A DNA stretch of 64,000 nt from an uncultured Candidatus Saccharibacteria bacterium (GTDB lineage Bacteria; Patescibacteriota; Minisyncoccia; Phycocordibacterales; UBA9973): positions 44,680 to 108,679 of the forward strand of contig CAZFSV010000001.1 in the NCBI GenBank assembly GCA_964522195.1, read 5' to 3'. The notes under the pieces were generated by a model. It was not told where the DNA came from and searched no databases. It saw only the letters and a program-made list of their open reading frames with translations. A program made the translations under genes and the position numbers. Shown piece after piece: positions 10,284 through 45,024 of this stretch. Within the stretch, counting starts at the first letter, position 1. Each line of letters starts with the position of its first letter.

Positions 10284-10360
10284 ATATAACTACATTTTAA
10301 CACTTTTTATAATAAGTTTAGACCATACCCACATAGACACAATAGACACCTCTTTATAGA

Positions 10361-11419
10361 CTAAGGAAATAATTCTAGATACTTTTCTGGACCCCATGCT
10401 TTCAGTAGTTTTTTGAAGATTTCAATATCTCTATCTTTCAGGGGTTGGTCGTTAAAACCACCATATTGGTTAAGGATGTTTAATTCTCTTTGGGTTTTAT
10501 TTGGATTAGCTTTCCATTCTTTTAATACCCTATAAATCTTTTCGGCTTCAATCTTGGTGTGTTCTTTTAGTTGTTCTTTGATTTGATTTACCTCAATAAG
10601 CATTTGGGCTCCGTTTGGAGTTTCGTATTTATGAAGAAGATTTTCATAAGCATATTTATCCATTTCTTTTGTAGCCACAGGAATTCTTCTTATGTATTTA
10701 CTACTACTGCCATTTGGTAGTAAAAATTCATACTGGCGATATTCGACACCTTCTTCATCTGTGTGAGATGCCCATTCTCTAGCAAAGCCGTTATCTATAT
10801 GATCTTTCATTGCTAGATTTAAGAACTTTTCTTTTCCTTTGGCATCAGAAGCTTCCCAACATTCACAAATTAATTGAGCTCTCATCCAGATAAAGCTCGA
10901 GTGAGCTTTGTTGTCCATTAATAATTCCCAAGCTTTTTTACTTAATTCTTTATCATCACTAATTATTGCCTGTTGAATCATTTTGTATTTATCTTCATAA
11001 GTCATAGCTGAAAACTTTCTGATTGTTTCAATTGCTTTTTCTCCTTCATCTCTAGTTTTCTTTACAAACCTTTCTATCTCAGCAAAAATTCTTTCATTCT
11101 TTTCTTTCTTTTGATCAATTTCAGCTTTTCTATAAAAAATAGTTCCTGTGTCATTAGCTAAATACATCAATGCATCTGGTTTGTAGTCCTTTATTTCTTG
11201 AGCGTAGTATTCACTACCAAAGAAGATGATAATAAATGGATTTATTTCTTCAATTTTAGATTTCCAATTGGTTGGAGTTTGGTTAGAGTAATATACATTT
11301 CCTAAATCATACTTGGAAATTAAATCCTTGTAATAACTATTATCTCTAAGTTCCTTAGCTTTTCTGTTCGCCATTTCAGTCAAAGGAACATATCCTATTA
11401 TTAAAGTATTTATTTCCAT
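10361..11419 (-). CDS. Hypothetical protein (352 aa), middle gene of nuclease cassette
   Basis: Long ORF tightly coupled (2-nt spacer) to upstream gene; no recognisable motif. Confidence 0.45.
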   Translation of the reverse strand: MEINTLIIGYVPLTEMANRKAKELRDNSYYKDLISKYDLGNVYYSNQTPTNWKSKIEEINPFIIIFFGSEYYAQEIKDYKPDALMYLANDTGTIFYRKAEIDQKKEKNERIFAEIERFVKKTRDEGEKAIETIRKFSAMTYEDKYKMIQQAIISDDKELSKKAWELLMDNKAHSSFIWMRAQLICECWEASDAKGKEKFLNLAMKDHIDNGFAREWASHTDEEGVEYRQYEFLLPNGSSSKYIRRIPVATKEMDKYAYENLLHKYETPNGAQMLIEVNQIKEQLKEHTKIEAEKIYRVLKEWKANPNKTQRELNILNQYGGFNDQPLKDRDIEIFKKLLKAWGPEKYLELFP

Positions 11420-11421
11420 AT

Positions 11422-11934
11422 TTATTTAATATCCCATTCAAACAAAATAAAGTTCTCTGGTAGTAAACCTTCTTTCAAAGATTCTTCAAGCCAGAGTATT
11501 TGTGTGTCTTGAATTTTATCTTTCTTTTTTCTTTTGAGTTCTATAAAAAGTATTTGACTATCTTTCCAAACAAGCACATCCCAACAGCCACCAGATTTCC
11601 CAGTTTTCTCTTTTATCTTATTTATCAAATCTTCTTTATCTTTAGGTATTTCTATTGGTTCAACAACTTTAGGTAAACCAATTCTGTATTTTCTTCTGTA
11701 TGAATCCACCCAAACACCGCTCCAACCATTTTCTTCAAAAATACGTAAAACAGCGAGCTCTGCAAAAAGAGGCTCGCTGTTATAATCAATCACGGCTTTA
11801 TTGCCATAAGTATAATCTATGGGTTTTCCTTTCCATTCGTTGAATTCAAAAAAGTATTTCTGAATTGGTATTTGTTTTTTATCTGACAATAAAAATATTT
11901 CATCATCAGTTTGATGTTTTTTAAGAAATTGCAT
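11422..11934 (-). CDS. Predicted VRR-NUC-like PD-(D/E)xK nuclease
   Basis: AELAVLRIFEENGW helix then CWDVLVW...ILFIELKRKK...QDTQILWLEE (D..ExK followed by conserved Q..W), pattern typical of VRR-NUC domains. Confidence 0.4.
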   Translation of the reverse strand: MQFLKKHQTDDEIFLLSDKKQIPIQKYFFEFNEWKGKPIDYTYGNKAVIDYNSEPLFAELAVLRIFEENGWSGVWVDSYRRKYRIGLPKVVEPIEIPKDKEDLINKIKEKTGKSGGCWDVLVWKDSQILFIELKRKKKDKIQDTQILWLEESLKEGLLPENFILFEWDIK

Positions 11935-11936
11935 TG

Positions 11937-12099
11937 CACTCTAGCGGGTTAGTGCAGGCTAGGAACTTTTGTGTATCAAAAGGCTCCCAGCCATTGCGAT
12001 AGACCGAAGTCTACCCGTATAAGTTTCCCTATACGACCCGCTAGAGTGACTCTGACTGGGAGTCCTTTGATCTCTAGCGGGAGATTTGCGACCATGCCT
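11937..12099. other. GC-rich structured repeat element (13-bp inverted repeats cactctagcgggt/acccgctagagtg plus third partial copy)
   Basis: Abrupt GC-rich block in AT-rich DNA. A perfect 13-bp inverted repeat at 11937-11949/12036-12048 encloses ~85 nt with sub-hairpins (tagac-UUCG-gtcta on minus strand, cgtata...tatacg). ctctagcggg recurs at 12071-12082. Confidence 0.4.
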
Positions 12100-12528
12100 C
12101 AAATAAATAAGGTTTAGGTCTTCTATTCAATTGTTAATGAAATTATACCTTATTTTCAAAGGTCCTGCATCTTAGCTTAATCCTTGAGATTTGTGTAGTC
12201 ATTAAAAATCCATCTGTGGATAACTTTTGATTTTTTATTTACACACCTTTTTGTATTAAAACTAGGTCATCTTTCTTAAAAGAAAAATCACAAAAATTCT
12301 ATTTACACTACTGACAGAATTTCTGTGATTTTTTGTTTGCAATAAAAAATATGTGTGTATAAAATACAAATATAACTAAATTGTGAGATTTTAATATCCC
12401 TAAACTGTTTGAGTAAGATCGGTCGATGAAAAGATCAAACTCGGAAGTGGGATATTTTTATTTCAACTTCACTTAATTGAGAACTAAACTGACTACCTAA
12501 ATTGAATTAAAAGCTAATTCAAAATTTT

Positions 12529-13851
12529 ATGAATAAAAATTTAAATATCGTTTATGTTCCAATTAAAAAACTCAAATTATCCGAATACAATCCTCGCAAA
12601 CAAAGCGAAGAGCAAGTAAAAGCTCTCACAGAAAGTATTAGTAGATTTGGTCTTGTCGATCCTGTCGTTTGTAATAGTGCCCCTCAAAGGATGAATGTCC
12701 TAATAGGAGGGCATTTCAGATTGAGGGTTGCTAAAGATCTCGGGTACACAGAAATGCCAGTAGTGTATGTAAATATCTCAGACATTGAAAAGGAAAAGGA
12801 ATTAAATATAAGATTAAATAAAAATGTTGGAGAGTTTGATTATGCTTTGCTTCAAGATTTCAACGAAGAATTCTTGGCAGGGGTAGGTTTTACCAGTGAA
12901 GAATTAGACACTATCTTTGACATAGACCCCAATCCAGAACAATTCAATCTCAAGGAAGAGCTTGAGAAGATGGATATAAAAGTGAAGGTTCAGAAAGGAG
13001 ATATTTATGAGATAGATGGTTCATACCTTATGTGTGGAGATTCAACCATAGAAGCAGATATGCTCAAATTAATGGAAGGTGCTCAAGCAGATATGGTGTG
13101 CACTGACCCGCCATATATTCTTGACTATCTAAAAGGCAAAACCAAACAAAAAGACGGTGTAACTGTCGGCTTTGGTGCCAAGAAGAACAGAAGATATCTT
13201 GAAACCGAATCTTTGCCTGATAACTTTACTGATTTGTGGATGGCGAATGTGCATAAGGTTCAGAAACCTGATTTTTCAATCATCATATTTGAAAATCCAA
13301 AGAACTTACGAATCATTTGGAATGCTCTCGAGAAGTACTGGAAATATCGTAACACGATTGTGTGGCATGTGCCAAACAGAATGCAAGGTTTTTCTGCAAA
13401 GATGAAATTCTTTAACAAGCACGATATAGCATTAGTCGGTAGCACAGATAGCGTGACCATCAACCTCGAGCCAGAAGAAGAGATATTTCAGAATGAATAT
13501 GAGAATGCTCTCTTTGCTTCATCTGGCAAACCACATTGGGAATCTTATGGTAAAGGTAAAAAGATATGCCCAACGGACTTTATCGAACACATCGCCGCTG
13601 ATAAAAAATCCTCAGGACAAGATATTATCTTTGGAACAAAACCACTTGAACTTTTGATTCCATATATCAAGGTTCTAACTACACGAGGTCAATTAGTACT
13701 TGAGCCATTTGGAGGCTCTGGATCTACTCTTATAGCTTCTTTAAAGCTAGGTCGAAAATGCAGAATAATGGAAAAGTCTCCTGTCTATACAGAAGTGATT
13801 ATCAAAAGATGGGAAAAGCACACAGGCAAAAAGGTTACCAAAATTAATTAA
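12529..13851 (+). CDS. ParB-like nuclease domain fused to beta-class N6A/N4C DNA methyltransferase (orphan MTase, phage/plasmid type)
   Basis: N-terminal ParB/Srx-like region (LIGGHFRLRVAKDLG); MTase motif IV DPPY (MVCTDPPYIL) preceding motif I FxGxG (LEPFGGSGSTLIA) = beta permutation. Confidence 0.8.
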   Translation: MNKNLNIVYVPIKKLKLSEYNPRKQSEEQVKALTESISRFGLVDPVVCNSAPQRMNVLIGGHFRLRVAKDLGYTEMPVVYVNISDIEKEKELNIRLNKNVGEFDYALLQDFNEEFLAGVGFTSEELDTIFDIDPNPEQFNLKEELEKMDIKVKVQKGDIYEIDGSYLMCGDSTIEADMLKLMEGAQADMVCTDPPYILDYLKGKTKQKDGVTVGFGAKKNRRYLETESLPDNFTDLWMANVHKVQKPDFSIIIFENPKNLRIIWNALEKYWKYRNTIVWHVPNRMQGFSAKMKFFNKHDIALVGSTDSVTINLEPEEEIFQNEYENALFASSGKPHWESYGKGKKICPTDFIEHIAADKKSSGQDIIFGTKPLELLIPYIKVLTTRGQLVLEPFGGSGSTLIASLKLGRKCRIMEKSPVYTEVIIKRWEKHTGKKVTKIN

Positions 13852-13859
13852 TCATCCAT

Positions 13860-14543
13860 ATGGCTAAAGACAAAACATCAAGACATGAATTGAAACGAAA
13901 CAGAGAACTAAAAGGAAATCTTGAATTAGCCAAGGGTAGTATATCCAGAGAGAGTAAATCTTTCTCTAGGTATGACCCTGATGAATTCATTACTAAAGGT
14001 AAACCAAACATACCCAAAGACATTCCAGAAAAAGAAAGAAAAAGATTAGAAAAACTTGCAGAAGAAACTGAGAAGAATAAAAAAGCTTTGGTATCACAAT
14101 TGCGAAAAACTCCCATAGCTCAGATAGCTTGTGAAAAGACTGGAATAGGCAGATCTACTTATTACAAATGGCGAGCAAATGACTTCATTTTTGCTCGTGT
14201 CGCTGATAAAGCGATGGATGCAGGTAGATTCTTCATCAATGATATGGCTGAATCAAAACTAATCAAACTCATTCAAGATAGTAATATGCAAGCCATTAGT
14301 TTATGGCTAAGACATAACCACCCTAGATACACATCTTTAGGTAGGATTATTAAAGACTTTGAAATTCTAACTGAAACTCTCTCAACAGAAGAGAAGAATG
14401 TTGCAGAACAAATGCTCTCAGAACTGGTGATGAATAAAGCAAAGTTAAACTATTCGAGCAAAGATTTGAAGGAGTATTACAACAAAGAAGAGAGTAAGAA
14501 TCCTGAAGATGAAAAAAGAATGCGGGGGTTTGATGAGGATTAA
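13860..14543 (+). CDS. HTH-domain protein (terminase-small-subunit/transposase-HTH-like), unknown function
   Basis: Basic N-terminus, putative HTH IACEKTGIGRSTYYKWRAND; 9 nt downstream of ParB-MTase. Confidence 0.4.
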   Translation: MAKDKTSRHELKRNRELKGNLELAKGSISRESKSFSRYDPDEFITKGKPNIPKDIPEKERKRLEKLAEETEKNKKALVSQLRKTPIAQIACEKTGIGRSTYYKWRANDFIFARVADKAMDAGRFFINDMAESKLIKLIQDSNMQAISLWLRHNHPRYTSLGRIIKDFEILTETLSTEEKNVAEQMLSELVMNKAKLNYSSKDLKEYYNKEESKNPEDEKRMRGFDED

Positions 14544-14552
14544 TGGTTAACA

Positions 14553-14580
14553 AAAATACCAGCTACGGCTGGTATTTTTT
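14553..14580. terminator. Bidirectional rho-independent terminator between convergent genes
   Basis: aaaaataccagc-tacg-gctggtatttttt perfect hairpin flanked by A-run/T-run. Confidence 0.75.
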
Positions 14581-14595
14581 ATGATGGTTTAGGTT

Positions 14596-17500
14596 TTACC
14601 TTCGATATTTAAGTTTACGGTTGTCAAATGCCGGTAATGTTCCTTCAAGTATATCGACAACGTACTTATTGATTTTTGGATTTTCAATAGAACCCGAATA
14701 AAAATCGAAGTCGTTCTTATTCTTTTTGTCTATGTGTACGTGGATTATCTGTTCCGCGTCTGCCACAACTGCAAGATTTGGGTTGTGGGTGACCATAATA
14801 ATTTGACGACGCTTCTTTGCTTTTTTAAGAAATGTCACAAGGATTTCGTATACACTTTTGTTATCGAGGTTATCTTCCGGTTGGTCTATGACAAGTGGTA
14901 TATCCCGACGATCAAGCATTAGATAGAAGATAAGCAGAAGACCACCCCTTTCGCCCGGCGACAATTCACTAAGGTCTTTCTCATCGACTTTCAGGTCATA
15001 CTTAGTCTCCAAGTAATCGAATCCAAAAATATAATCATATAGATCGACGGGTTCCTTGCCTTGCTTCATCTGCTTGAACACACCACGAGCCTTATTTTCG
15101 TTAGCAGGTAGACCAACTCTTTTATCAGTATCGATATTGGCCGTCACGGAGTCGAGGAAAGACATTACCATTTTCTCATTCTGCCAATTGGTTACTTCCT
15201 CAACAATTCTTTTAAGCACACTTTTACCATCCTCTGTTCCGTAAAAACTACCTTTAACCGCCTGATTAACAAATCTAAAGAATTCATCGAAAAATGTTTT
15301 GTCGAAGCGAAGACTCGCTTCTATAGAGATGTCGTAGTCGCCTAACTCTTCGCTATATTTTTCAATTTCTCCGTCGATTGATTTTTTCACCGAGTCGTAG
15401 AAGGTAGCCAACGTCACCTTCTTGGCGAAGATTTCCTTGCTGACTCTTGTCCGTTCTTCCTTGGCAGTGGTCAGTTCCGCAGGGTAAGTTGATGTAATCG
15501 CAACAAGTTCCTTCGTAAGCCAGTTAAGCGTATCCGCGACTGGGGTTGTATCATCGCCAACCAATTCTTTCAGTTGATTTTCCCACTTTTCCTTATCTTT
15601 CAGATAGGCTTGGTATTCCTGATTCGGTTTATCAAGCCGGTCAACGATTTCTTTTCTCTGTTTAGACAACAGCGCCTGTTTGCAGACTAGGCTTTTTCCC
15701 AACGCAAGTTTCTTGTCAGCATCATTCAGACCTAATGTCTCAATATCGGCTTCAGTTTTGAGGAGTTCATTTATCTCGGCGAGTCGGTCCTCATTGGTTT
15801 TGACAAAATCATCGATTTTTTTGGAATCAAACGATACTGTGACAATGTCATCGAATTTTATGTCTGCAGCCGTAAGTTGCTCTCGGTATTTAGTCTTTAA
15901 ACCCGTAATACCCATGACTTGGCGAGAGATTGCCAGTTTTATTTGTCCAAAGTCCTGAACTTTCTTTGCAACGGACGCCTGCTCCGTCTTAATTGCAGTG
16001 ATTGATGTGGCTAACGTGGTCAATTCAGTTTCTATGGGCGTAATCTCAGACACACCTCCCGTCGCAACCTCAGTGGCTTGTGCTGGTTTTGGGGCGTCTT
16101 TTGGTTTCAGCTTGTTATGGGTATCTACCTCCTCTTCCTTGATCCGCTTCTTTTCCTCAATCGACTTCTTGTAATCAGGCGCGAGTTTTCGTTCAGCGGC
16201 AACAACCTTGTTGTTTGCCTCATGCAATGAGTCCTTAGCTAATTTTATATCCTCCTCTATCTGACTTGAGAGATAGGTGATGAGTTCCTCTAAGGTCGTC
16301 TTTTCAAATCGGTCCTTTTCTTCAACGTACCCAAAAATGACCTCATTTAATTTTCCCCTGAACTCATCATCTTCTATATTCGCACAAATCTTCTCAAGAT
16401 ATTTTTGGGGTAGGTACTCGACCTTTTCAGAAAGGGTTTTGTCGACTTCTGCATCCAGAAGGATTCCGTCCGGCTCTCCCGCATGCCAATGTAATTCACC
16501 AGAAAAATTCGAAGCGCACCGCCCTTTGAGAAATTTGTCTTTATTCAAGAAGGAGAATAATTCTTCGGATCGACCGTTCGTACCGTCATACTTCTGGTTA
16601 TGACTATTGCCAAACAACCCCACTATGTCCGTGACAGCACTTTTACCACTTCCTTTGTTACCAATGATGGCAACAAGTTCGGGATTCAGGTCGATCTTTT
16701 CGTCTTTAAACCATGTGCCGTGTTTTCCGTCGTACCCTTCAATCTGGTCAATATGTAGAGTTTTTATGTACTTAGTCTGATTGGTACGCACGCGATCCAA
16801 AATGCCAGGCTCATCTCCTATGAATATTCGTTCATCAGGTTCATACGTGATGTACTTGAGACCCTCAAACGTTAGGTCCGCCTTAACCCAGGTGATGTCT
16901 CTTTCTATCACGGTCAGATTTTCGGCGTCCGTTTTTATGATCCTTTTGCCAAGCGCATTTTCAAGATCATTAAAAGAGTGAGCGTCACTACCGCATGCGA
17001 CAGGCTTGGGTACCGAACCTTCGTAACGCTCACCGAGAAAGAAATCCTTATCATCAGCACGTCCGAAAAATACTGGGCAAACATCGTCTATAGTTTTCGC
17101 GTACTCCGTGTGTCTGCCCTCATGTTGCGGCGGGCGGATTCCACCGTAACCATTTGCTACACCAAAAACTAGAAAAACATCGCGATTTCCGAATGTCTTC
17201 TTTAGTGAGTTAAGAATTGCATCACTAGTAACAATTGCCTTATCATATCCGATGCGCGCCAAGTCAGTTTGTACGCATTTAGATTTTGAACCGTCTACAT
17301 TAACATTTCTTAGCTCAATACCGCTCAGAAATCTTTCGATTTCCTCTTTTGTTGCCTCATCTGAGAAAACAATGTGAATATTTATGTGATCGTTCTCTTT
17401 ATTTTTATCTTCAAGTCTAAATTCAATATTTGGAAAAAATATTTTCTTTGAATCTGGATATTTTGTCTTAAATTTTTCAATAAAAGTGAAGTAACCATCC

Positions 17501-17688
17501 GCAGAGAAATAATCGGTGATACCAAAGGCATATACATCAGATTCTTCCAACTTTCTACAATATTCATCCCACACGTCTTTACCAGAAGAAACAGCGTACT
17601 GGTCATTTAGTTTTGTGGTTGGTGGATGAATATGAAGATCCCACTTTCTCCATACTGAACCTATTCTAAACTCGTCTTTCTGAACCAT
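14596..17688 (-). CDS. PHP-domain phosphoesterase fused to SMC/RecN-like ABC ATPase with central coiled-coil (PplA-like defence protein)
   Basis: N-terminal PHP motifs (WDLHIHPP HxH, ...ACGSDAHS). Walker A AIIGNKGSGKS. ~450-aa coiled-coil/low-complexity spacer. ABC signature LSPGERGG, Walker B VIDQPEDNLD, H-loop IIMVTHNP. 2-nt spacer to upstream res gene. Confidence 0.7.
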   Translation of the reverse strand: MVQKDEFRIGSVWRKWDLHIHPPTTKLNDQYAVSSGKDVWDEYCRKLEESDVYAFGITDYFSADGYFTFIEKFKTKYPDSKKIFFPNIEFRLEDKNKENDHINIHIVFSDEATKEEIERFLSGIELRNVNVDGSKSKCVQTDLARIGYDKAIVTSDAILNSLKKTFGNRDVFLVFGVANGYGGIRPPQHEGRHTEYAKTIDDVCPVFFGRADDKDFFLGERYEGSVPKPVACGSDAHSFNDLENALGKRIIKTDAENLTVIERDITWVKADLTFEGLKYITYEPDERIFIGDEPGILDRVRTNQTKYIKTLHIDQIEGYDGKHGTWFKDEKIDLNPELVAIIGNKGSGKSAVTDIVGLFGNSHNQKYDGTNGRSEELFSFLNKDKFLKGRCASNFSGELHWHAGEPDGILLDAEVDKTLSEKVEYLPQKYLEKICANIEDDEFRGKLNEVIFGYVEEKDRFEKTTLEELITYLSSQIEEDIKLAKDSLHEANNKVVAAERKLAPDYKKSIEEKKRIKEEEVDTHNKLKPKDAPKPAQATEVATGGVSEITPIETELTTLATSITAIKTEQASVAKKVQDFGQIKLAISRQVMGITGLKTKYREQLTAADIKFDDIVTVSFDSKKIDDFVKTNEDRLAEINELLKTEADIETLGLNDADKKLALGKSLVCKQALLSKQRKEIVDRLDKPNQEYQAYLKDKEKWENQLKELVGDDTTPVADTLNWLTKELVAITSTYPAELTTAKEERTRVSKEIFAKKVTLATFYDSVKKSIDGEIEKYSEELGDYDISIEASLRFDKTFFDEFFRFVNQAVKGSFYGTEDGKSVLKRIVEEVTNWQNEKMVMSFLDSVTANIDTDKRVGLPANENKARGVFKQMKQGKEPVDLYDYIFGFDYLETKYDLKVDEKDLSELSPGERGGLLLIFYLMLDRRDIPLVIDQPEDNLDNKSVYEILVTFLKKAKKRRQIIMVTHNPNLAVVADAEQIIHVHIDKKNKNDFDFYSGSIENPKINKYVVDILEGTLPAFDNRKLKYRR

Positions 17689-17690
17689 GA

Positions 17691-19961
17691 TTATTTCAAT
17701 TCAAAAAATTCCCATCCTTTCATCGACGAGTCGAAAGAATATTTTGCGTTTTTGTTTATCTTCCATCCATTTGGCCCATCTTGGACAGCTATACCACCGG
17801 CAAAACCTTTTTTGCCCTTTAGCCATGCTTGAAGTGCCTCGGCTTTGTACTTTGTATCGTTGCTCTCCGCAGTAATTCCGCCTTTAGTATCAACAATGTA
17901 GAGAGTGTCTTTGGTCTGTACAATCCAGTCGGGATAGAAAAGTTTTTCCTTGTTTTCATCCTGATTGTAGTAAGAGATAGAGAAGTATTCGCTTCCCGAG
18001 TCGCCGTTTTTGTACCACCACACTACGCCCCTAGATGATTCGAGGAATTTTACAAACGCTTCCTCGTTAGTTCGTCCTGCATAATCTTTTTCTATCCAAA
18101 ACGGCTCCATAGCTGACTTCTTAACAGAAAGTGCTTCGTATTGATCAGTGAAGAACAAAGCTTCGCGTGGGATTTCAATATTCTCAACGCGCTTTGCGCG
18201 TGCAGATTTTTTGTTTACTTCTTGTTCACGAACAGGTCGATATTCAAGAAGTGCATCACCAATTACCGGAGCAAGTGCACCAGATGGACTCAAGAGATCG
18301 TTTACGATGATTTTATAGGCATCAATACGCTCCGCCTTAAGCTTATTCATTAGCCAAATATTTAAAGCTGTTTTCAGCTTTCCCCACGAACGCTCAGGAG
18401 CAAATTTTCTGTTCTCGTCTGTCTGTTTTGCAATAATTTTGAAGCAGAGGAGGTTATAGAGTCGCTCGAGATCGTGTCGAGACATTTCCTGCTCATGACT
18501 TCCTCCTTCTGCAAGAAGCTCCTTAGTAAAGTTGTCGTAATCATCAATTTCTACCCCAACGATCAAGCCGTTTGTGACTTTCGGCTTCAAATCCATTTTC
18601 TTTACATCTAGTTTTTTATCCGCAACTTTCTTGAATGTTTCTTGGAATGTATCGCCAAGGTCGTTATAGTCGGCACGAGTCATAAAGACCGATTCAAGCT
18701 TGATCGGCTTTATGTTTTTCTTGCGATAGCTTCCGTTTATTGCAGGGCGGTTTTCTGTCTTTGATTTTGCATACTCGGCAAGTACCTCGTTTCGCTTGTA
18801 GTTTGTATAGAGATAACCCAAATTAAGTTCAGGGTGTGCGAAATGCACGCCAAACGGCATTCGCAAGATGCGCCCTACAGTCTGAATTGCAAAAGTAGGA
18901 TTTTTGATTTCGCGGAACATCACAAGCACGCCCGCGCGCGGACAGTCCCAGCCAGTCGCGGCGGCTTGCTTGAAAAGCAAGAACGAAACCGGAGAATTAC
19001 TCTTTTCCAAGTCTTCAAGATTTTCCTTTTCTTTAGAAAGCCATACTGCAATTTCGTTTCCTTTTACACCCTTACGCTTTAGATATTCCAAAACAATTTG
19101 CTGTTTAGTTGTACCACCTGTTTCTTTTGTTGCTTGGTCGTCATTTGGTAGCTGTATCAGTACAAGCGGATTTACTTCTGCTTTTATTTCTTTATAGAGA
19201 GAAACGAGCTCCTCGCGCTTTGAATACGCAAGCTCTAAAAGCATTTCATCTTGATCAAGTTTCTTGATTGCTTTCTGACCCAAATCTTCCTCAGTTTGAA
19301 AAACAATTTTTTCCTTAATGAGTCCCGCTTCCACAACTTCAGCTCGCTTTACCTCGATATATCCGGCAACATCAGCACGGGTAGGGATGTATTTCGGCGT
19401 AGCCGACACGCGAATAGTGATTTTGGGTTTAACAACCCCATTTATAACTTCGTCCGCAAGTTCTGTATCAGAGCCAATATGCTCCTCGTCAATAATCACG
19501 ACAATTTTTCTTCCGTCCTCGTGGGTTTCGGCGATAAAATTATCAAAAGTTAGTCCTTGTTCATTATCTCGGCGAAGCTTTCGGCTATCTTTCGTCTTAC
19601 CTTTGATTTTTTGCCAGTTTATGAAAAAGACATTGTTCTTCTTTAGCTTTCCGCGCGAAAGATCGTTAAGATCAATCAAATCAAGCTCGGATGCTCCTCC
19701 ATAGTATTCAAAAAGTTTCTTTTTACTTTGTTCGTATGATTCTTCGCTAAACGAGAACCAAACAAATGCCACATCATTTCCCTCAAAACGAGGATCGCTC
19801 ACAATATCGCGTAAAAATTGCGCAAGCATGATTGTCTTACCCGAGCCAGTAGGCGATTTAAAGACGACGGGTGTATTTTCGTTCGGTAATTTCCACAGCG
19901 AAAGAAACTCATTTTTGAGATTCGATACTGCGGTTTCTTGAAATGGTTTTAGTGCAAACAT
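17691..19961 (-). CDS. res: Type III restriction enzyme Res subunit (SF2 helicase + PD-(D/E)xK endonuclease)
   Basis: Helicase motifs I FKSPTGSGKT and II VIIDEEH; C-terminal endonuclease motif YPDWIVQTKDTLYIVDTKGG (PD...DxK). Confidence 0.75.
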   Translation of the reverse strand: MFALKPFQETAVSNLKNEFLSLWKLPNENTPVVFKSPTGSGKTIMLAQFLRDIVSDPRFEGNDVAFVWFSFSEESYEQSKKKLFEYYGGASELDLIDLNDLSRGKLKKNNVFFINWQKIKGKTKDSRKLRRDNEQGLTFDNFIAETHEDGRKIVVIIDEEHIGSDTELADEVINGVVKPKITIRVSATPKYIPTRADVAGYIEVKRAEVVEAGLIKEKIVFQTEEDLGQKAIKKLDQDEMLLELAYSKREELVSLYKEIKAEVNPLVLIQLPNDDQATKETGGTTKQQIVLEYLKRKGVKGNEIAVWLSKEKENLEDLEKSNSPVSFLLFKQAAATGWDCPRAGVLVMFREIKNPTFAIQTVGRILRMPFGVHFAHPELNLGYLYTNYKRNEVLAEYAKSKTENRPAINGSYRKKNIKPIKLESVFMTRADYNDLGDTFQETFKKVADKKLDVKKMDLKPKVTNGLIVGVEIDDYDNFTKELLAEGGSHEQEMSRHDLERLYNLLCFKIIAKQTDENRKFAPERSWGKLKTALNIWLMNKLKAERIDAYKIIVNDLLSPSGALAPVIGDALLEYRPVREQEVNKKSARAKRVENIEIPREALFFTDQYEALSVKKSAMEPFWIEKDYAGRTNEEAFVKFLESSRGVVWWYKNGDSGSEYFSISYYNQDENKEKLFYPDWIVQTKDTLYIVDTKGGITAESNDTKYKAEALQAWLKGKKGFAGGIAVQDGPNGWKINKNAKYSFDSSMKGWEFFELK

Positions 19962-19965
19962 AGTT

Positions 19966-21651
19966 TTATAGGCGATTTATTTCTTTGTATACCTCAAGGA
20001 TCGGCTCGGGAATATCCTCGACTCGGATATGTGCGGATGAATATTCACCCTTGTATTCGTTCTTGCCCCAACTGAAAATATACAGAGCGACAGGTAAACT
20101 TTTCTTTTCAAGTTTTTCAATCAATTCTGCAAGCTTTGATTTGTCCTCCTTGAAATAGATTGCTGTCATTCGTCCGCGACCTTCAAAAATCTGCCACCAT
20201 TCATTTTTTTCAACTTCATTGAGAGTATCTTCACGGACAGCAATCATTTCTCCGGCTTGATAGGTAACACGAATTTTTGCTTCGTCAGGTATCTTCTGAA
20301 GATGTTCAATCTCAACAATATCTGTTTTGTAGTATGCAAGATTTCCTCCAAGCCCTTCAATTTTTTCACCAGTTTTTAAATTTTTATAGCCACTCATTAC
20401 TCGTTTTACGCGTTCGTAAGTCACTTCCTTGCAAATATTGTTTTCATTGTTAGTGCAAAGAATAAATCTACGATGACCACCGTCCTCTTTATTTATCTCG
20501 AGTACAGCATGACCAGTAGTACCAGATCCAGCAAAAAAGTCTACAACAAGAGCGTTGCGCCTATTTTTTGTTGTGGCAATTAAACACTCTTTTGTGTTGT
20601 AAAGTGATTTCGGAAATGGGAATTTTGTATCGATTATTTGATTTACCAAGCTTGAACCATAAGTATTAGAGTTATGTTTTGAATCCACCCATACTGTTTT
20701 GTATCTGTATTGACTCTTATATCTGTTGATTACAAGTTCACCTTTATTTTCTTCACACTTTAGTTCTCCCCAAATATCCTCAACTGTTTGTCTTGCAAAT
20801 CGCCACTTTCTTTCCACACCATTTCCATCAATGGGGTAAATTTCAACATTCCCATCTTTTCTTTTCTCGTTTGCGGATTTCGGATGTATCTCATCTTGAA
20901 GAACATCGCCAAATCCAATAATTTTCTTTGTTTTAGGATCAACAATAATTGAATAGAAACAATTTCGTGCTGTGTTCCTCTTAGATTCATCGCCACCCCA
21001 GTCTCTTAATGGGGTGGGTTTAACATCTTCTCTTTCTACGCGAGAAATATATTCCTTTCCTTTCGGAAAAATGAAATATGCATATTCGTGGGTATATGAG
21101 AAATTATCTCCTTGAATTCCACCTGGATTATGAATGATGGTTACGCAGACCTTTTCATGGGTAGGAAAAATATCCTCGAGCAAGAGACCTAGTGTCTCTT
21201 GCTCGTTGTGATCAATAGCACAAATTAAAATTCCATCTTGATTAAGAAGTTCCCTTGCGAGCTTCAATCTGTGACTCATAAAAGACAACCATTTGCTATG
21301 ACGATATTCGTCTTCCTTGTCTACATAGTCGTTGTTGTATCTCCAGTTTTTCGCTCCTGTGTTGTAGGGTGGATCAATGTAAATAACATCAACCTTCTTT
21401 TTATGAGTATAAACAAGAGCTGAAAGTGCATGATAGTTATCACCCTCAATCAGAAGATTATAGATTTCATTATCTGACTTCTTAACCTTAAGGTTTTTTA
21501 TTTGTCTCAATACAGGTATATTTTTTTGACCATCTACAACGACATCTTCTGGTTTTTCCTCCCAGATTAAGCCGTACTTGCGATCTTTTTTCAGACGTCT
21601 CAGTTCTGATTTCAAATCCGCTATCTCTTTTTGTAAATCTTTTTCAGACAT
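19966..21651 (-). CDS. mod: Type III R-M Mod subunit, N6-adenine DNA methyltransferase (beta class)
   Basis: Motif IV IYIDPPYNTG upstream of motif I VVDFFAGSGTTGHA; central variable TRD; 4 nt upstream of res. Confidence 0.8.
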   Translation of the reverse strand: MSEKDLQKEIADLKSELRRLKKDRKYGLIWEEKPEDVVVDGQKNIPVLRQIKNLKVKKSDNEIYNLLIEGDNYHALSALVYTHKKKVDVIYIDPPYNTGAKNWRYNNDYVDKEDEYRHSKWLSFMSHRLKLARELLNQDGILICAIDHNEQETLGLLLEDIFPTHEKVCVTIIHNPGGIQGDNFSYTHEYAYFIFPKGKEYISRVEREDVKPTPLRDWGGDESKRNTARNCFYSIIVDPKTKKIIGFGDVLQDEIHPKSANEKRKDGNVEIYPIDGNGVERKWRFARQTVEDIWGELKCEENKGELVINRYKSQYRYKTVWVDSKHNSNTYGSSLVNQIIDTKFPFPKSLYNTKECLIATTKNRRNALVVDFFAGSGTTGHAVLEINKEDGGHRRFILCTNNENNICKEVTYERVKRVMSGYKNLKTGEKIEGLGGNLAYYKTDIVEIEHLQKIPDEAKIRVTYQAGEMIAVREDTLNEVEKNEWWQIFEGRGRMTAIYFKEDKSKLAELIEKLEKKSLPVALYIFSWGKNEYKGEYSSAHIRVEDIPEPILEVYKEINRL

Positions 21652-21653
21652 AA

Positions 21654-21980
21654 TTATTTTCTTTTTACTATTTCTTCTCCTAAAGGACCTTCAATAAGTT
21701 TAACAGTTTCCTTTATAAACTGTTCCCATGTATACACTTCTTTGTACCACAATAAAACAACGTCGGTTCGATGCTTTAGAATTCTCAGAAATTTTTGCCA
21801 TGTAAATCCTACCGGTTTTAGTTCATCTTTCCACGCTTCCCATAAATATTTAGGGAGCTGATTTCCGTACCACACATTGAGATTTTCCCATTTAATAGAA
21901 GTATCTTTTGTGGTCATTTTTTCAATTGAACGAATCCAATCTTTTACATGCTGGGGTTCTTTTGGGGTAAAAAGTTTCAT
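21654..21980 (-). CDS. Hypothetical Trp-rich small protein, first gene of mod-res-PHP/ATPase operon
   Basis: 108-aa ORF ending 2 nt before mod start; no recognisable motif. Confidence 0.4.
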   Translation of the reverse strand: MKLFTPKEPQHVKDWIRSIEKMTTKDTSIKWENLNVWYGNQLPKYLWEAWKDELKPVGFTWQKFLRILKHRTDVVLLWYKEVYTWEQFIKETVKLIEGPLGEEIVKRK

Positions 21981-22088
21981 ATCCTAAGTATATGGTATAT
22001 TAAAAGAAAAGTAAAGTAATAAGATTACCAACATCTAGCAAATGAGACGCTCTGGACTCCTTGAGGGATATGCGTCATTCATTAGGGT

Positions 22089-23366
22089 ATGGAAACAGAA
22101 AAAGTAAAATATTGCTTATATGCAAGAAAATCAACTGAATCAGAAGAAAGACAGGTCCTTTCTATAGATTCACAGATTAAAGAGATGCTTCAATTAGCAG
22201 ATAGAGAGGGGTTAGAGATTGTAACGATGAAGCGTGAAAGCCACAGCGCCAAGGAAACAGGTCAAAGACCAGTCTTTAACGAAATAATAGAAGAATTAAG
22301 GGCTGGTAAGTTTAATGGAATACTCACATGGGCACCTGACCGTATTAGTAGAAATGCGGGAGATTTGGGAAAGATAGTGGACCTGATGGATGCAGGAAAA
22401 CTGAAAGAAATACGAACCTTTGGGCAAAAGTTTTCAAACAATCCGAATGAGAAGTTTCTTCTGATGATTTTAGGAAGTCAGGCAAAACTTGAGAATGATA
22501 ATAGGGGTATCAATGTAAAGCGAGGATTACGAACAAGGGTTGAGATGGGTCTCTGGCCAGGAGTGGCACCGCTCGGATATCTTAATCAAAGAGATTTAGA
22601 TAAAAAGTGTCAGCTAGTAGTAGACACACTTCGTGCTCCAATAGTGAAAAAGATATTTGAAAAAGTAGCTTATGAAAAAATGAGTGGTAGGAAAATATAT
22701 AACTGGCTCAGGTTTGAAGCGAATTTCTATACTCGAGGCAATAAACCCTTAACTCTCGCAGGAGTATATAGAATTCTAGAGAGTCCTTTTTATTATGGAA
22801 TGTTTGAATATCCGAAAGATAGCAGTAATTGGTATCAAGGTAAGCATAATCCATTAATTACAAAAGAATTATTTGAACAAGCTCAGGCACAACTGAAGAG
22901 AGATAATATACAAAGAGAGAATAAAGAATTCGCATTTACCAAACTATTTACTTGCGGATATTGTGAAAGTGGAATATCTGCAGAAGAGAAATGGAAACAA
23001 CTAAAAGATGGTACACATACAAAATACATATACTATTCGTGCAGTAGATCCCGAGATAGAAATTGTAAAAATAAATATATTCGTGAAGAGGAACTTATTA
23101 CTGAAATGTTGAATATATTAGATAAAGTAAATATAAATGAGCTTGGTATGAGGCAGAAGCTAGAAGACGAAATTACAAGATTTAATATATTCCAAAGGTC
23201 AGTACTTGGTGCGACAGATAAAATTAAAAACAACACAGAAGCAGATATACGAAACTATGCTAAGTATATTCTAAAAGAAGGGATGGTAAGTGAGAAAAGA
23301 GAATTGTTAGCCAACCTCAGAAGCAGGATTGTATATAAGGATAAGAAGCTAACACTAATAGAATAA
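22089..23366 (+). CDS. Large serine recombinase (resolvase/integrase family)
   Basis: N-terminal catalytic domain YARKSTESEERQ...SIDSQ, recombinase domain, Cys-rich zinc ribbon CGYCESG...YSCSRSRDRNC, C-terminal coiled coil. Confidence 0.85.
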   Translation: METEKVKYCLYARKSTESEERQVLSIDSQIKEMLQLADREGLEIVTMKRESHSAKETGQRPVFNEIIEELRAGKFNGILTWAPDRISRNAGDLGKIVDLMDAGKLKEIRTFGQKFSNNPNEKFLLMILGSQAKLENDNRGINVKRGLRTRVEMGLWPGVAPLGYLNQRDLDKKCQLVVDTLRAPIVKKIFEKVAYEKMSGRKIYNWLRFEANFYTRGNKPLTLAGVYRILESPFYYGMFEYPKDSSNWYQGKHNPLITKELFEQAQAQLKRDNIQRENKEFAFTKLFTCGYCESGISAEEKWKQLKDGTHTKYIYYSCSRSRDRNCKNKYIREEELITEMLNILDKVNINELGMRQKLEDEITRFNIFQRSVLGATDKIKNNTEADIRNYAKYILKEGMVSEKRELLANLRSRIVYKDKKLTLIE

Positions 23367-23373
23367 TTTATTT

Positions 23374-24762
23374 TTACTCATATTGAGAATGAATATTTTT
23401 AACATAGTCATCTGCAATTTGTAGAATTTCACTAAAAGTGAGTATTTCAATATTATGAAGTGAGTTACGAAGTTTCGTAAAGTCTCTCTTGAGACTTTTT
23501 TCTTTTACTTTATTTAATTTACTTTTAGTTAATTTGTGTTCAGAAGAAATAATAATTATTCCTCTTGGATGATAAAGGTTCTCTTCCTCGGTCATGTTAG
23601 TAATCTTATTTTCGTCAGAATTATTTTCAAATCGTTTCTGTACAATAGCATCCATGTAATTCATTGTTTGAATTACTGCTCTACTTAACTCAGAAGAAAA
23701 GCTAAAGTTTTTGTGAGAAGAATCCCAAGTAACAGCATTCTTAAGATGTGTTTTGATTTCGATAATATCAAGACCATTATAATGATTAATACCTATAAAA
23801 TCAGGATACTTTTTGTCACCATCAATATCTTTAAATTCAATTTTTGGATATATCTTTTTATATGAAAATACTAAATACAATAGATACTTTTCAAAGTATT
23901 TTTGCCAAAGATTTTCTAACTGTTTTATATCTGAAGTATCATCTGTGATTTTTGCGATAATTTTTTTAGCTTTCTCGGTGCTCATATCCGTAGAGCCAAG
24001 ATTAAGAATTTCTTTACCAACAGCAATAATGTCTTTGAGCTTTTCTTTTATAAAATACTCATCTAAAGATCTTAAAAAGTCTGGAGTAAATACCTCGTCG
24101 CGTATCAATTTTTCTGTAAAATACTCAAGATTCTTCACATCCTCTGTATCTAAAAAGTTATCGTAGTCTTTCTTTTTATTCTTATTTTTAAGATTGAAAC
24201 GCTCAATCATAAAAGAAAAATCTCCTTTGCCTATAGTTGTAGTTTCTTTTGGTGCTTTATTTGTGTACTTAAGTTTTAATTTATTTATTAAAAAAGTCTC
24301 GATGCGATCTCTACTAGATTTACCTTTTTTAAAAACATCATATGAATCACTTAAGATATCTATTAATACTGACTCTGGTATTTGTATTGTTTTTTCATTA
24401 GCTTTTCTTAAAATCTTTTTACCAGAGTTTAAGATTTTTATCTTAGAAAGAGTATCATCAATACCGAGAATATCTTTTATGTATTGAAACCATGGAATAT
24501 TATAGTCACTACCGTAACGGGTTCGTAGTACATTACTTATGTCTACCTTGTCTGAAATAAGTAATGACTGTTTATTATTTATTTTATCGTAACTATTTTG
24601 CTGTCGATTATAATAATGAAATTCTATGGTTGTGTCTTTTTTATTAAATATCACAACATCACCAGAAGGACAGGATATTTTAGAATCCTCAAAAACCATC
24701 CCTGGCCAGCTTAGGGATTGAAAAAACTCAACAATCTTTTCTTTTTGTGTTTTTTCTTCCAT
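23374..24762 (-). CDS. RecB-family PD-(D/E)xK nuclease-like protein (possibly Shedu/DUF4263-like)
   Basis: C-terminal KYPDFIGIN...GLDIIEIKT (PD, ExK) followed by QTMNY (QxxxY motif of RecB-family nucleases); 462 aa with long unrecognised N-terminal region. Confidence 0.4.
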   Translation of the reverse strand: MEEKTQKEKIVEFFQSLSWPGMVFEDSKISCPSGDVVIFNKKDTTIEFHYYNRQQNSYDKINNKQSLLISDKVDISNVLRTRYGSDYNIPWFQYIKDILGIDDTLSKIKILNSGKKILRKANEKTIQIPESVLIDILSDSYDVFKKGKSSRDRIETFLINKLKLKYTNKAPKETTTIGKGDFSFMIERFNLKNKNKKKDYDNFLDTEDVKNLEYFTEKLIRDEVFTPDFLRSLDEYFIKEKLKDIIAVGKEILNLGSTDMSTEKAKKIIAKITDDTSDIKQLENLWQKYFEKYLLYLVFSYKKIYPKIEFKDIDGDKKYPDFIGINHYNGLDIIEIKTHLKNAVTWDSSHKNFSFSSELSRAVIQTMNYMDAIVQKRFENNSDENKITNMTEEENLYHPRGIIIISSEHKLTKSKLNKVKEKSLKRDFTKLRNSLHNIEILTFSEILQIADDYVKNIHSQYE

Positions 24763-24865: not shown

Positions 24866-24955
24866 TGGCGGAGAGAGCGAGATTCGAACTCGCGGTCCTG
24901 TTTAAGGGACGACGGTTTAGTAAACCGTTGATTTAAACCACTCATCCATCTCTCC
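24866..24955 (-). tRNA. Type II (long variable arm) tRNA, Ser-like, apparent anticodon ACU
   Basis: GGAGAGATGGATGAGTGGTTTAAATCAACGGTTTACTAAACCGTCGTCCCTTAAACAGGACCGCGAGTTCGAATCTCGCTCTCTCCGCCA. Acceptor 7 bp, T-arm GCGAG/TTCGAAT/CTCGC, G73, encoded CCA, 3-bp D-stem typical of tRNA-Ser. Anticodon loop TTACTAA reads A34-C35-U36. Confidence 0.65.
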
Positions 24956-25021: not shown

Positions 25022-25111
25022 GGAGCCGTGGGAGAGTGGTCTAATCTACCTCTTTGCTAAAGAGGCAGGCTGTAAAAGGCCTCGAGGGTTCGAATCCCTC
25101 CGGCTCCGCCA
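25022..25111 (+). tRNA. tRNA-Ser(GCU)
   Basis: GGAGCCGTGGGAGAGTGG...CCTCT-TTGCTAA-AGAGG anticodon arm (GCU), long variable arm, T-arm AGGGTTCGAATCCCT, G73, CCA encoded. Confidence 0.85.
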
Positions 25112-43089: not shown

Positions 43090-43290
43090 TAGCCGCCGAA
43101 TTTCCGAAAACCCCCAGTCCGAAACCCGCCCGCATTCCTCCCCAGACCCCTCCTGCGGGCGGGAAATCAGCCGAGGCAGGGCGAATCCAAAACCCCAGAC
43201 AAATTGTTTCGCCCTGCCGAGTCCATTTTATTAGTTTTAATCGTTTGGATTTTCTTCGAAAAAAGTTCGAATTTTGTCCAGAACATACCG
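43090..43290. repeat. 201-bp GC-rich terminal inverted repeat, copy A2
   Basis: Reverse complement of 41282..41482. Confidence 0.85.
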
Positions 43291-43407
43291 CAACAAATCG
43301 GAATTCAAATTTCCGCAAAAAATATGGTCGGCACGAAGTGCCGTCTGTTCTGAATTCCCCCCAAAAAATCCTGAATCTGAAAGGGTTCGCCACGCAGAGC
43401 GTGGCTC
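43287..43407. repeat. 121-bp inverted repeat, copy B1, abutting A2 at shared CCGC
   Basis: Matches reverse complement of 44821..44940; begins CCGCAACAAATCGGAATTCAAATTTCCGCAA (degenerate tRNA T-arm/3' end). Confidence 0.85.
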
Positions 43408-44973: not shown

Positions 44974-45024
44974 AGACATACAGACTTTCCAGGTCTGCGC
45001 ACTAGACCACTATGCGAACCCTCC
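44938..45024 (-). tRNA. tRNA-Ser(GGA), CCA not encoded
   Basis: GGAGGGTTCGCATAGTGGTCTAGTGCGCAGACCTGGAAAGTCTG...CGGGAGTTCGAATCTCCCACCCTCCG. Anticodon loop CTGGAAA (GGA), long variable arm, 3-bp D-stem, G73. Confidence 0.8.

Follow-up and report, generated by a model that had tools for sequence, protein, structure and literature searches.

A TrlF-family ATPase gene as the last cistron of a predicted Type III-like restriction operon, and its recurrence in restriction operons of other genomes

What is a gene for a PHP phosphoesterase fused to an ATP-binding cassette (ABC) ATPase doing at the end of a restriction operon? The question is raised by a 64,000-nucleotide (nt) stretch of contig CAZFSV010000001.1 from an uncultured Candidatus Saccharibacteria bacterium (the window, in whose positions coordinates are given; L-numbers such as L082 denote comparison loci from other genomes). 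The six-frame list of open reading frames (ORFs) places genes for proteins of 108, 561, 756 and 1030 amino acids (aa) here, all on the minus strand and separated by 2, 4 and 2 nt. The last encodes a protein of the TrlF family, members of which recur in restriction operons of several types elsewhere.

orf108, 21654-21980, minus strand: conserved Trp-rich, all-helical leader gene, 108 aa
mod, 19966-21651, minus strand: Type III beta-class N6-adenine DNA methyltransferase, 561 aa
res, 17691-19961, minus strand: short Type III-like restriction subunit with superfamily 2 (SF2) ATPase and C-terminal PD...DxK motif, 756 aa
trlF, 14596-17688, minus strand: TrlF-family PHP phosphoesterase fused to a Rad50/SMC-like ABC ATPase, 1030 aa

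The operon and its TrlF-family protein

Candidate transcription signals flank the four genes. A promoter-like site ends 7 nt 5' of the orf108 start codon, within the 108-nt divergent spacer common with a recombinase gene. A bidirectional hairpin, which serves a convergent 227-aa gene too, begins 16 nt past the trlF stop codon; it was read straight from the sequence, as the pattern scan did not list it.

promoter-like site, 21987-22015, minus strand: TTTACT-17-TATACT, 9 of 12 consensus matches (consensus match only)
terminator-like hairpin, 14551-14580, minus strand: ATACCAGC-CGTA-GCTGGTAT, 8 bp, GC-containing, with an A-run and a T-run either side

The short gaps, the promoter-like site and the terminal hairpin therefore make the four genes look like one transcription unit, and the four look like a single co-transcribed mobile operon. 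The operon rides a GC-richer serine-recombinase cassette of roughly 13 kb beside tRNA-Ser genes: at 15-19 kb the GC fraction reaches 0.39-0.44, where most of the window has about 0.24-0.33, and a tRNA-Ser pair lies 2.9 kb from orf108. An earlier note on this DNA had described the four closely spaced minus-strand genes and their GC-rich setting in a tRNA-Ser island, and on both counts the ORF list and the composition agree with it.

The 1030-aa protein matches the NCBIfam model NF045780, 'TrlF family AAA-like ATPase', with 650.9 bits (5.4e-195; cut-off 350) and from end to end, with residues 10-1029 on model positions 2-944 of 944. The related NCBIfam family Spaf_1101 reached 120 bits, far under its cut-off of 475. 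The earlier note had compared the protein with Ppl, reportedly described by Gao and co-workers in 2020 as a single-gene anti-phage system of E. coli. The NCBIfam Ppl model (NF042955) gave 84.4 bits (4.8e-24; cut-off 1000), its best stretch being model positions 472-878, and the PADLOC Ppl profile (PDLC02208) matched residues 862-1024 (7.6e-16) along model positions 727-888 of 894 only. Judged by these profiles, the protein is a member of the TrlF family and a distant relative of Ppl, which has a separate curated family. The proposed fusion of PHP and ABC ATPase with a Ppl architecture thus stands, while the family is TrlF and the Ppl score lies far under its cut-off.

PHP domain, trlF residues ~10-290, 16819-17661, minus strand: HxH 19-21, D59, E89, H105, D235-x-H237
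N-terminal half of the ABC head, residues ~326-470, 16279-16713, minus strand: Walker A GNKGSGKS 343-350; boundaries approximate
helix-rich insert, residues ~471-860, 15109-16278, minus strand: from the composition profile; boundaries approximate
C-terminal half of the ABC head, residues ~861-1030, 14599-15108, minus strand: LSPGER 909, DQPEDNLD 935, THNP 967-970

The signature motifs of TrlF start at residues 19 (HIH), 233 (GSDAH), 343 (GNKGSGKS), 909 (LSPGER), 935 (DQPEDNLD) and 963 (IIMVTHNP). Pfam matched SMC_N at residues 328-987 (under the Pfam cut-off) and AAA_21 at 850-972. These and the partial PADLOC Ppl match bear out the profile hits anticipated for the protein, apart from the Pfam PHP model, which gave no match to the N-terminal 321 residues even at E<=10; the PHP domain was therefore approached by structure prediction. 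The N-terminus has a PHP fold with an intact set of metal ligands, and the ABC head is intact: H19, H21, D59, E89, H105, D235 and H237, together with the ABC motifs, are invariant in 22 TrlF homologues of 52-81% identity. The Walker A motif and the ABC signature are about 560 residues apart. Residues ~450-800 contain little Pro and Gly and many helix formers; a Pro-rich break mid-insert, at about 529-546, is conserved and includes the invariant P529 and P535. We presume from this composition that the insert is a coiled coil.

Searches of PDB sequences for a solved Ppl or TrlF, with the single sequence and with a 22-sequence profile, returned ABC, SMC and Rad50 heads only, and the Rad50/SMC matches span just the ~80-residue region of the signature and Walker B (E 0.002-0.1). 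TrlF resembles SbcCD/Mre11-Rad50 in having an ABC head split by a long helical insert and in its pairing with a metal-dependent phosphoesterase nuclease, which in SbcCD/Mre11-Rad50 acts on DNA ends; Rad50 and SMC heads are among its best PDB sequence matches. By contrast, the PHP domain is fused in cis, where Mre11/SbcD is a separate calcineurin-fold protein, no CxxC zinc hook is seen in the TrlF translation, the mid-insert feature being the Pro-rich break, and trlF is mobile and not a housekeeping gene. PADLOC matches to the N-terminal half of the ATPase (mad3, AriA, PtuA) recall the OLD-family, GajA, AriA and MAD3 proteins, which are likewise defence ABC-type ATPases; the matches are weak (mad3 1.9e-12, AriA 1.8e-08, GajA) and confined to the ATPase. 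MADS and PARIS are functionally tied to methylation or restriction, and the effectors of this group are TOPRIM domains or separate proteins, none with PHP.

The Mod and Res proteins place the operon among restriction systems. Mod has DPPY at residue 93 ahead of FAGSG at 373, the beta-class order, and matches Pfam N6_N4_Mtase (7.9e-25), PADLOC MTase_III (1.5e-73) and, in a sequence search, the Type III Mods of the PDB (Mbo45V 1.9e-44, 6k0w 2e-31, EcoP15I Mod 6.5e-25). Res carries GSGKT at 39, DEEH at 158, SATP at 186, QTVGRILR at 360, YPDW at 676 and VDTKG at 690, its C-terminal PD...DxK nuclease motif being D678 with D691-T-K693, and these motifs, the nuclease motif included, are kept in much more diverged Res homologues. 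Its matches are Pfam ResIII (2.3e-15), Helicase_C (2.4e-4) and PADLOC REase_III (2.5e-18); no PDB chain was found at E<=0.01 and no NCBIfam model, so that generic ResIII and PADLOC profiles alone match. By their motifs and profile matches, Mod and Res look at the gene level like a Type III system, with res 4 nt from mod, in keeping with the complete mod-res pair read earlier from motifs that were found at the places given. As in the classical systems (EcoP15I, EcoP1I), mod stands upstream of res in one operon; Mod is homologous to that of EcoP15I, and Res likewise combines an SF2 ATPase with a C-terminal PD-(D/E)xK motif. Res differs from the classical enzymes in being short (756 aa) and in lacking a detectable sequence match to solved Res chains, and the operon differs in its two additional cistrons, orf108 and trlF. 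Given its small size and the lack of a match to NCBIfam or PDB sequences, we label Res 'Type III-like'.

TrlF in restriction operons of other genomes

The TrlF family is large (more than 2249 clusters at 90% identity, E<=1e-10). When one genome per species was scanned, at least 355 trlF loci in many phyla were confirmed; 80 were fetched, 69 of them full-length. Neighbours were counted as operon-like when on the same strand with a gap of at most 150 nt. Among those upstream of trlF, the Pfam counts were N6_Mtase 10, Methylase_S 8, Eco57I 6, HsdM_N 5, MmeI 4, ResIII 4, N6_N4_Mtase 3 and C5 methylase 2, and HaeIII, NgoPII and BsuBI endonucleases were also present; downstream, HsdR domains (4), ResIII (4) and TrlG-type AlbA_2/HATPase_c_4 proteins (3) were found. 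A marker for N6/N4 methyltransferases, the motif [DNS]PP[YFW] in genes of at least 200 aa, occurred in 16 of 105 operon-chain genes as against 14 of 457 other genes of the same loci (odds ratio 5.7, p=1e-5). By this marker, at least 15 of the 69 full-length loci have a restriction-modification operon setting, of Type I, IIG or III. Co-location of homologues with restriction-modification genes, which had been named as a check on the pairing, is thus recurrent, though it is not specific to Type III. The following arrangements were verified directly:

L030, Salinimicrobium marinum: hsdM-hsdS-trlF-trlG-like-hsdR
L023: mod-res (ResIII and RE_endonuc)-124-aa gene-trlF
L018: res-mod-trlF
L059, Lapidilactobacillus: MmeI-like gene-helicase-403-aa gene-trlF

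In the Type I operons L030, L033 and L058, trlF occupies the slot between hsdS and hsdR. Seven TrlFs of 62-92% identity were examined as the closest relatives of the window protein, and in five of them trlF closes an operon of the Type III, Type I or methyltransferase kind, the gaps being about 2-4 nt in most cases:

92% identity (L082): the exact operon, in the same cassette
81% identity: split mod-res-trlF
71% identity: two N6_N4 methyltransferases, two unknown genes and trlF
68% identity: hsdM-DUF2130-hsdS-474-aa gene-hsdR-trlF
62% identity: hsdMS-hsdR-YgjP-like gene-trlF

The remaining two have no complete system, and one of them (L083, 88% identity) retains just the 3' end of res. The restriction type switches among these closest relatives, and restriction-linked TrlFs are scattered over at least eight places of a neighbour-joining tree; together these observations argue for repeated recruitment of TrlF. 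A further line of evidence comes from operons led by homologues of orf108. In the Type III operons of the window and L082, trlF follows res; in those of L114, L117, L125 and L148 it stands between mod and res (NF045780 scores of 469-588 bits where complete); and in L153 and L156 it directly follows orf108, ahead of a methyltransferase. The occurrence of Type III systems with TrlF in three gene orders favours a functional linkage.

Homologues of the res and orf108 of the window were absent from all 80 fetched TrlF loci, and a universally conserved TrlF partner, sought in the same loci, was not found. The small ORFs that often lie upstream of trlF there are unrelated to one another and to orf108, and none is conserved across the 80. 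With neither a constant partner nor a constant small upstream ORF, TrlF is therefore basically an autonomous gene.

The family takes its name from the temperature restriction locus trlR-trlF-trlG of Photorhabdus laumondii, where the annotation of TrlF is histidinol phosphatase and its role could not be established (PMC7554251). The protein of the window belongs to the same family, with a full-length match. Restriction genes are absent from the Photorhabdus locus, which was the subject of work on growth arrest at 36 C; the mutations mapped to trlG only, and no role for TrlF was found (PMC7554251). The operon of the window in turn is without trlG and trlR, its partners being orf108, mod and res. 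TrlG-type proteins (AlbA_2/Schlafen with HATPase_c_4) nevertheless stand beside or in place of TrlF in restriction operons. The one in L120 (L120:3053-4588) lies between mod and res of an orf108-led Type III operon, and that of L030 (L030:12311-13531) adjoins TrlF between hsdS and hsdR.

The leader gene and the mobile cassette

The orf108 family is rare: it has 94 close homologues and, among 1.84 billion representatives, 172 clusters at 50% identity, and most members are free-standing, with a length of about 100-120 aa. It has the invariant residues E8, W37, P43, L46, W47, W50, L54, G58, W61, Q62, K63, F64, W85 and G101, and its AlphaFold2 model (predicted local distance difference test score 83.7) is a helical bundle of 5-6 helices. 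No Pfam, NCBIfam, PADLOC or PHROG match was obtained, nor a convincing fold match. The number of homologues, the conserved residues and the lack of any annotation match agree with the earlier view of orf108 as a real, uncharacterised component. In 80 metagenomic loci (L092-L171) the homologues are almost always first in the operon, with gaps of about -47 to +50 nt, and they head at least eight kinds of defence-type operon, in which orf108 is followed by:

mod-res
mod-trlF-res (four loci)
trlF and a methyltransferase (two loci)
mod-TrlG-like-res
a 1566-aa DUF4011/AAA_11/AAA_12/MTES_1575 helicase-nuclease and a Cas4-like gene
a WYL-helicase
SNF2/DrmD-like helicases
an Eco57I-like enzyme
an Hsp70-like protein

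At five loci an orf108 homologue is fused N-terminally to a protein of ~1420-1510 aa; the sole fusion scanned (L136, 1440 aa) contains TPR repeats and a PIN-TPR-GreABC domain. A role as restriction controller (C) protein was considered and rejected, as orf108 has no Xre-type helix-turn-helix (HTH) and occurs in contexts beyond restriction. It is probably a separate leader module with a regulatory or sensory function.

The recombinase and the operon travel together. Positions 10334-23370 of the window are 92.5% identical in nucleotide sequence to L082, and in both the cassette order is serine recombinase, orf108, mod, res, trlF, 227-aa gene and ParB-methyltransferase gene. The neighbouring features are:

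large serine recombinase, 22089-23366, plus strand: Resolvase, Recombinase and Zn_ribbon_recom matches; divergent from orf108
ParB_N and N6_N4 methyltransferase (440 aa) and terS-like/HTH 227-aa gene, 12529-14543, plus strand: convergent with trlF
LOOT RNA (Rfam RF03000), 11998-12120, minus strand: 76.6 bits against a gathering score of 46.4
Shedu-type gene, 23374-24762, minus strand: SduA_C 3.8e-18
tRNA-Ser, 24866-24955, minus strand: CCA encoded
tRNA-Ser, 25022-25111, plus strand: CCA encoded
514-aa large serine recombinase ORF, 43429-44973, plus strand: flanked by a perfect 120-nt inverted repeat
arms of the 120-nt inverted repeat, 43288-43407 and 44821-44940: perfect

The fusion of ParB_N and N6_N4 methyltransferase matches phrog_498 (8.7e-81) and is followed by the 227-aa gene, which is HTH_Tnp_1_2 or small-terminase-like; in L082, L084 and L088, too, the pair is found close to trlF. 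In combination with the serine recombinase, it points to a mobile element, phage-derived or satellite-like, as the carrier of the defence operon. The LOOT RNA match belongs to the 13-kb block that L082 also has, and is a short way upstream of the ParB-methyltransferase gene. The Shedu-type gene stands between the cassette recombinase and the tRNA-Ser pair, and L082 has a 1250-aa protein there instead, which sets the cassette boundary near 23370. Direct or inverted repeats resembling attachment sites were sought at 9-26 kb, and only short, low-identity, chance-like matches were found.

The two tRNA-Ser genes are divergent and 66 nt apart, beginning 2.9 kb beyond orf108; one is predicted with the unusual anticodon ACT, and they are distinct genes, neither a duplicate of the other. 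A second recombinase locus lies further along the window, where the right arm of the 120-nt inverted repeat abuts tRNA-Ser(GGA) at 44937-45024. About 135 nt including the repeat recur with 97.8% identity at L083:49-183, adjoining the 3' res remnant upstream of the 88%-identical trlF. This position suggests that the repeat is the boundary of a recombination or insertion event; on its far side the L083 contig has no orf108, no mod and no 5' part of res.

Readings of the TrlF-restriction pairing

By analogy with Ppl, TrlF is most likely an end- or break-sensing, nucleotide-gated DNA nuclease. According to summaries of the work of Xu et al. (Mol Cell 2026; summarised in PMC12904381 and PMC13434339), E. 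coli Ppl is a single-stranded DNA 3'-5' exonuclease. Nucleoside triphosphates (NTPs) that bind to its PHP domain and to its NTPase domain inhibit it, and NTP depletion together with 3'-OH ends from phage homing endonucleases activates it (PMC12904381, PMC13434339). Proteins whose ABC head is interrupted by a coiled coil, such as Rad50/SbcC and RloC, act as sensors of DNA ends or breaks (PMC3458546). It is the combination of this end sensing with the Ppl biochemistry that leads us to propose TrlF as an end-sensing DNA nuclease. TrlF and Ppl share an N-terminal PHP domain and an NTPase on one polypeptide, a detectably homologous C-terminal ATPase half and a defence-island context. Ppl is a lone gene, by contrast with the trlF of the window as fourth cistron of a restriction operon, and nuclease activity, NTP control and end sensing have been demonstrated for Ppl only.

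We consider it slightly better than an even chance that the operon encodes a two-layer DNA defence, in which restriction is joined by a Ppl-like DNA-end nuclease-ATPase that also covers phages escaping restriction. In the first layer, Mod would methylate host sites, and Mod-Res would find unmethylated sites by means of its SF2 ATPase and cut with its C-terminal PD...DxK nuclease. In the second, TrlF would most likely dimerise through ATP-bound heads, on the analogy of Ppl and Mre11-Rad50/SbcCD, recognise DNA ends or breaks and, gated by nucleotides, degrade DNA at the PHP site. It would be expressed together with the restriction subunit and have the same invading DNA as its target, either finishing off restriction-made ends or covering phages that escape restriction. 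We infer the nuclease substrate, its activation, the cooperation with restriction and the role of orf108 from homology and analogy. A more specific proposal, with TrlF as a dedicated add-on that would attach, physically or in function, to Type I, IIG and III restriction complexes, whether as booster destroying restricted DNA or as guardian set off by anti-restriction, and orf108 as a sensor or regulator of defence operons, we put forward tentatively, as a possibility that is not the expected outcome.

Several observations weigh against a two-layer defence. About three quarters of TrlF loci have no methyltransferase in the operon chain, and cooperation with restriction is therefore not obligatory. 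In L092, an orf108-mod-res operon of 78% nucleotide identity has an unrelated protein of at least 1003 aa replacing TrlF (L092:9010-12020), which starts 4 nt after res, reaches the contig end and has no Pfam, NCBIfam or PHROG match. This unrelated cargo implies a modular, swappable accessory slot downstream of res, and L092 fits such a slot as well as it fits a specific TrlF partnership. TrlF is weakly similar to Ppl (84 bits), chiefly over the C-terminal half of the ATPase. Cleavage by EcoP15I and other Type III enzymes produces short 5' overhangs, as against the 3'-OH overhangs that Ppl reportedly senses, and because of this mismatch a simple hand-over of ends from Res to TrlF is not guaranteed. 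The only study of the name-giving locus found TrlF dispensable for the phenotype (PMC7554251); a literature search for TrlF with ATPase or restriction returned that paper alone and no TrlF defence experiment.

One alternative is that TrlF is an autonomous single-gene defence, which has its promoter in common with the restriction system only through hitch-hiking in a compact mobile cassette and does not interact with it mechanistically; we regard it as unlikely. The cassette is mobile and modular, as seen in the 13-kb block at 92.5% identity in L082, in the different 1003-aa gene that replaces trlF in L092, and in L083, where trlF is accompanied by the res 3' end only, with no mod or orf108 in the recovered sequence. 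Most TrlFs are solitary, and the Shedu gene next door is typical of defence islands. Set against this, the methyltransferase enrichment was measured relative to other genes of the same defence-rich loci, and TrlF is embedded in operons, separating the subunits of a single enzyme, across several independent lineages and several gene orders, a placement that exceeds the usual clustering of neighbourhoods.

We are doubtful of a second alternative, which follows the logic of PrrC: binding to Mod-Res or HsdMS/R would silence TrlF, and phage anti-restriction would free it for indiscriminate DNA degradation and abortive infection. 'RM guardian' systems are a recognised class (PMC12707154), and the Type I operons L030, L033 and L058 hold TrlF in the exact hsdS-hsdR slot of PrrC, as the Type III operons L114, L117 and L148 hold it between mod and res. 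PrrC and RloC are likewise fusions of an ABC-type ATPase with a nuclease (PMC2610378, PMC3458546), encoded inside or beside restriction-modification loci, and RloC has a Rad50-like coiled-coil insert (PMC3458546); the gaps of 2-4 nt would suit stoichiometric co-production. However, the effector of PrrC and RloC is a C-terminal tRNA anticodon nuclease, in contrast to the N-terminal PHP domain of TrlF, and their sequences are related to that of TrlF in the ABC fold only. EcoprrI has been demonstrated to silence PrrC, with nothing comparable known for TrlF. Most TrlFs are without a restriction partner and Ppl works alone, which precludes restriction-enzyme silencing as the general control, and the partners of TrlF belong to structurally unrelated types (I, IIG and III), which makes one conserved inhibitory interface unlikely.

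That the protein is instead a housekeeping repair ATPase of the SbcC/Rad50/RecN type with a built-in nuclease, beside restriction genes by chance, is very improbable: the SMC_N match (under the Pfam cut-off), the Rad50/SMC-like head motifs and the long helical insert would suit it, but among the 25 best NCBIfam matches listed there is no SbcC, RecN or Rad50 model, a housekeeping match being what the earlier note had named as refuting its reading, the TrlF model scores 651 bits, the distribution is patchy and horizontal, on recombinase cassettes and in restriction operons of many phyla, and the GC content of the trlF region is foreign to the host.

As to what the two-layer defence adds, much is known already: the TrlF family is catalogued, Ppl is a validated defence gene with a published mechanism, and effectors embedded in restriction-modification loci are established (PrrC, RloC, PARIS). 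That restriction systems are coupled to accessory effectors, PrrC and PARIS being examples, has been described (review PMC12707154), and to that extent the configuration is less novel than first supposed; TrlF in such a role was not found in the literature. Within the limits of the literature search, no account was found of TrlF travelling repeatedly in Type I, IIG and III operons, of the four-gene arrangement or of the orf108 leader family. The pairing of TrlF with restriction looks functional, yet it varies a theme already known.

Without interplay, the locus amounts simply to ordinary parts assembled in one compact defence cassette. If TrlF does cooperate with restriction, it would be a DNA-targeting counterpart of PrrC, and a second, unrelated ABC-ATPase-nuclease family recruited into restriction operons; an end-sensing nuclease would then be shown to back cheap sequence-specific restriction. 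The orf108 family gives a way into the question of how defence operons of very different kinds might have one common upstream control or sensing element. TrlF itself is widespread and carries a curated name with its function undemonstrated, so that a functional assignment would annotate thousands of genes.

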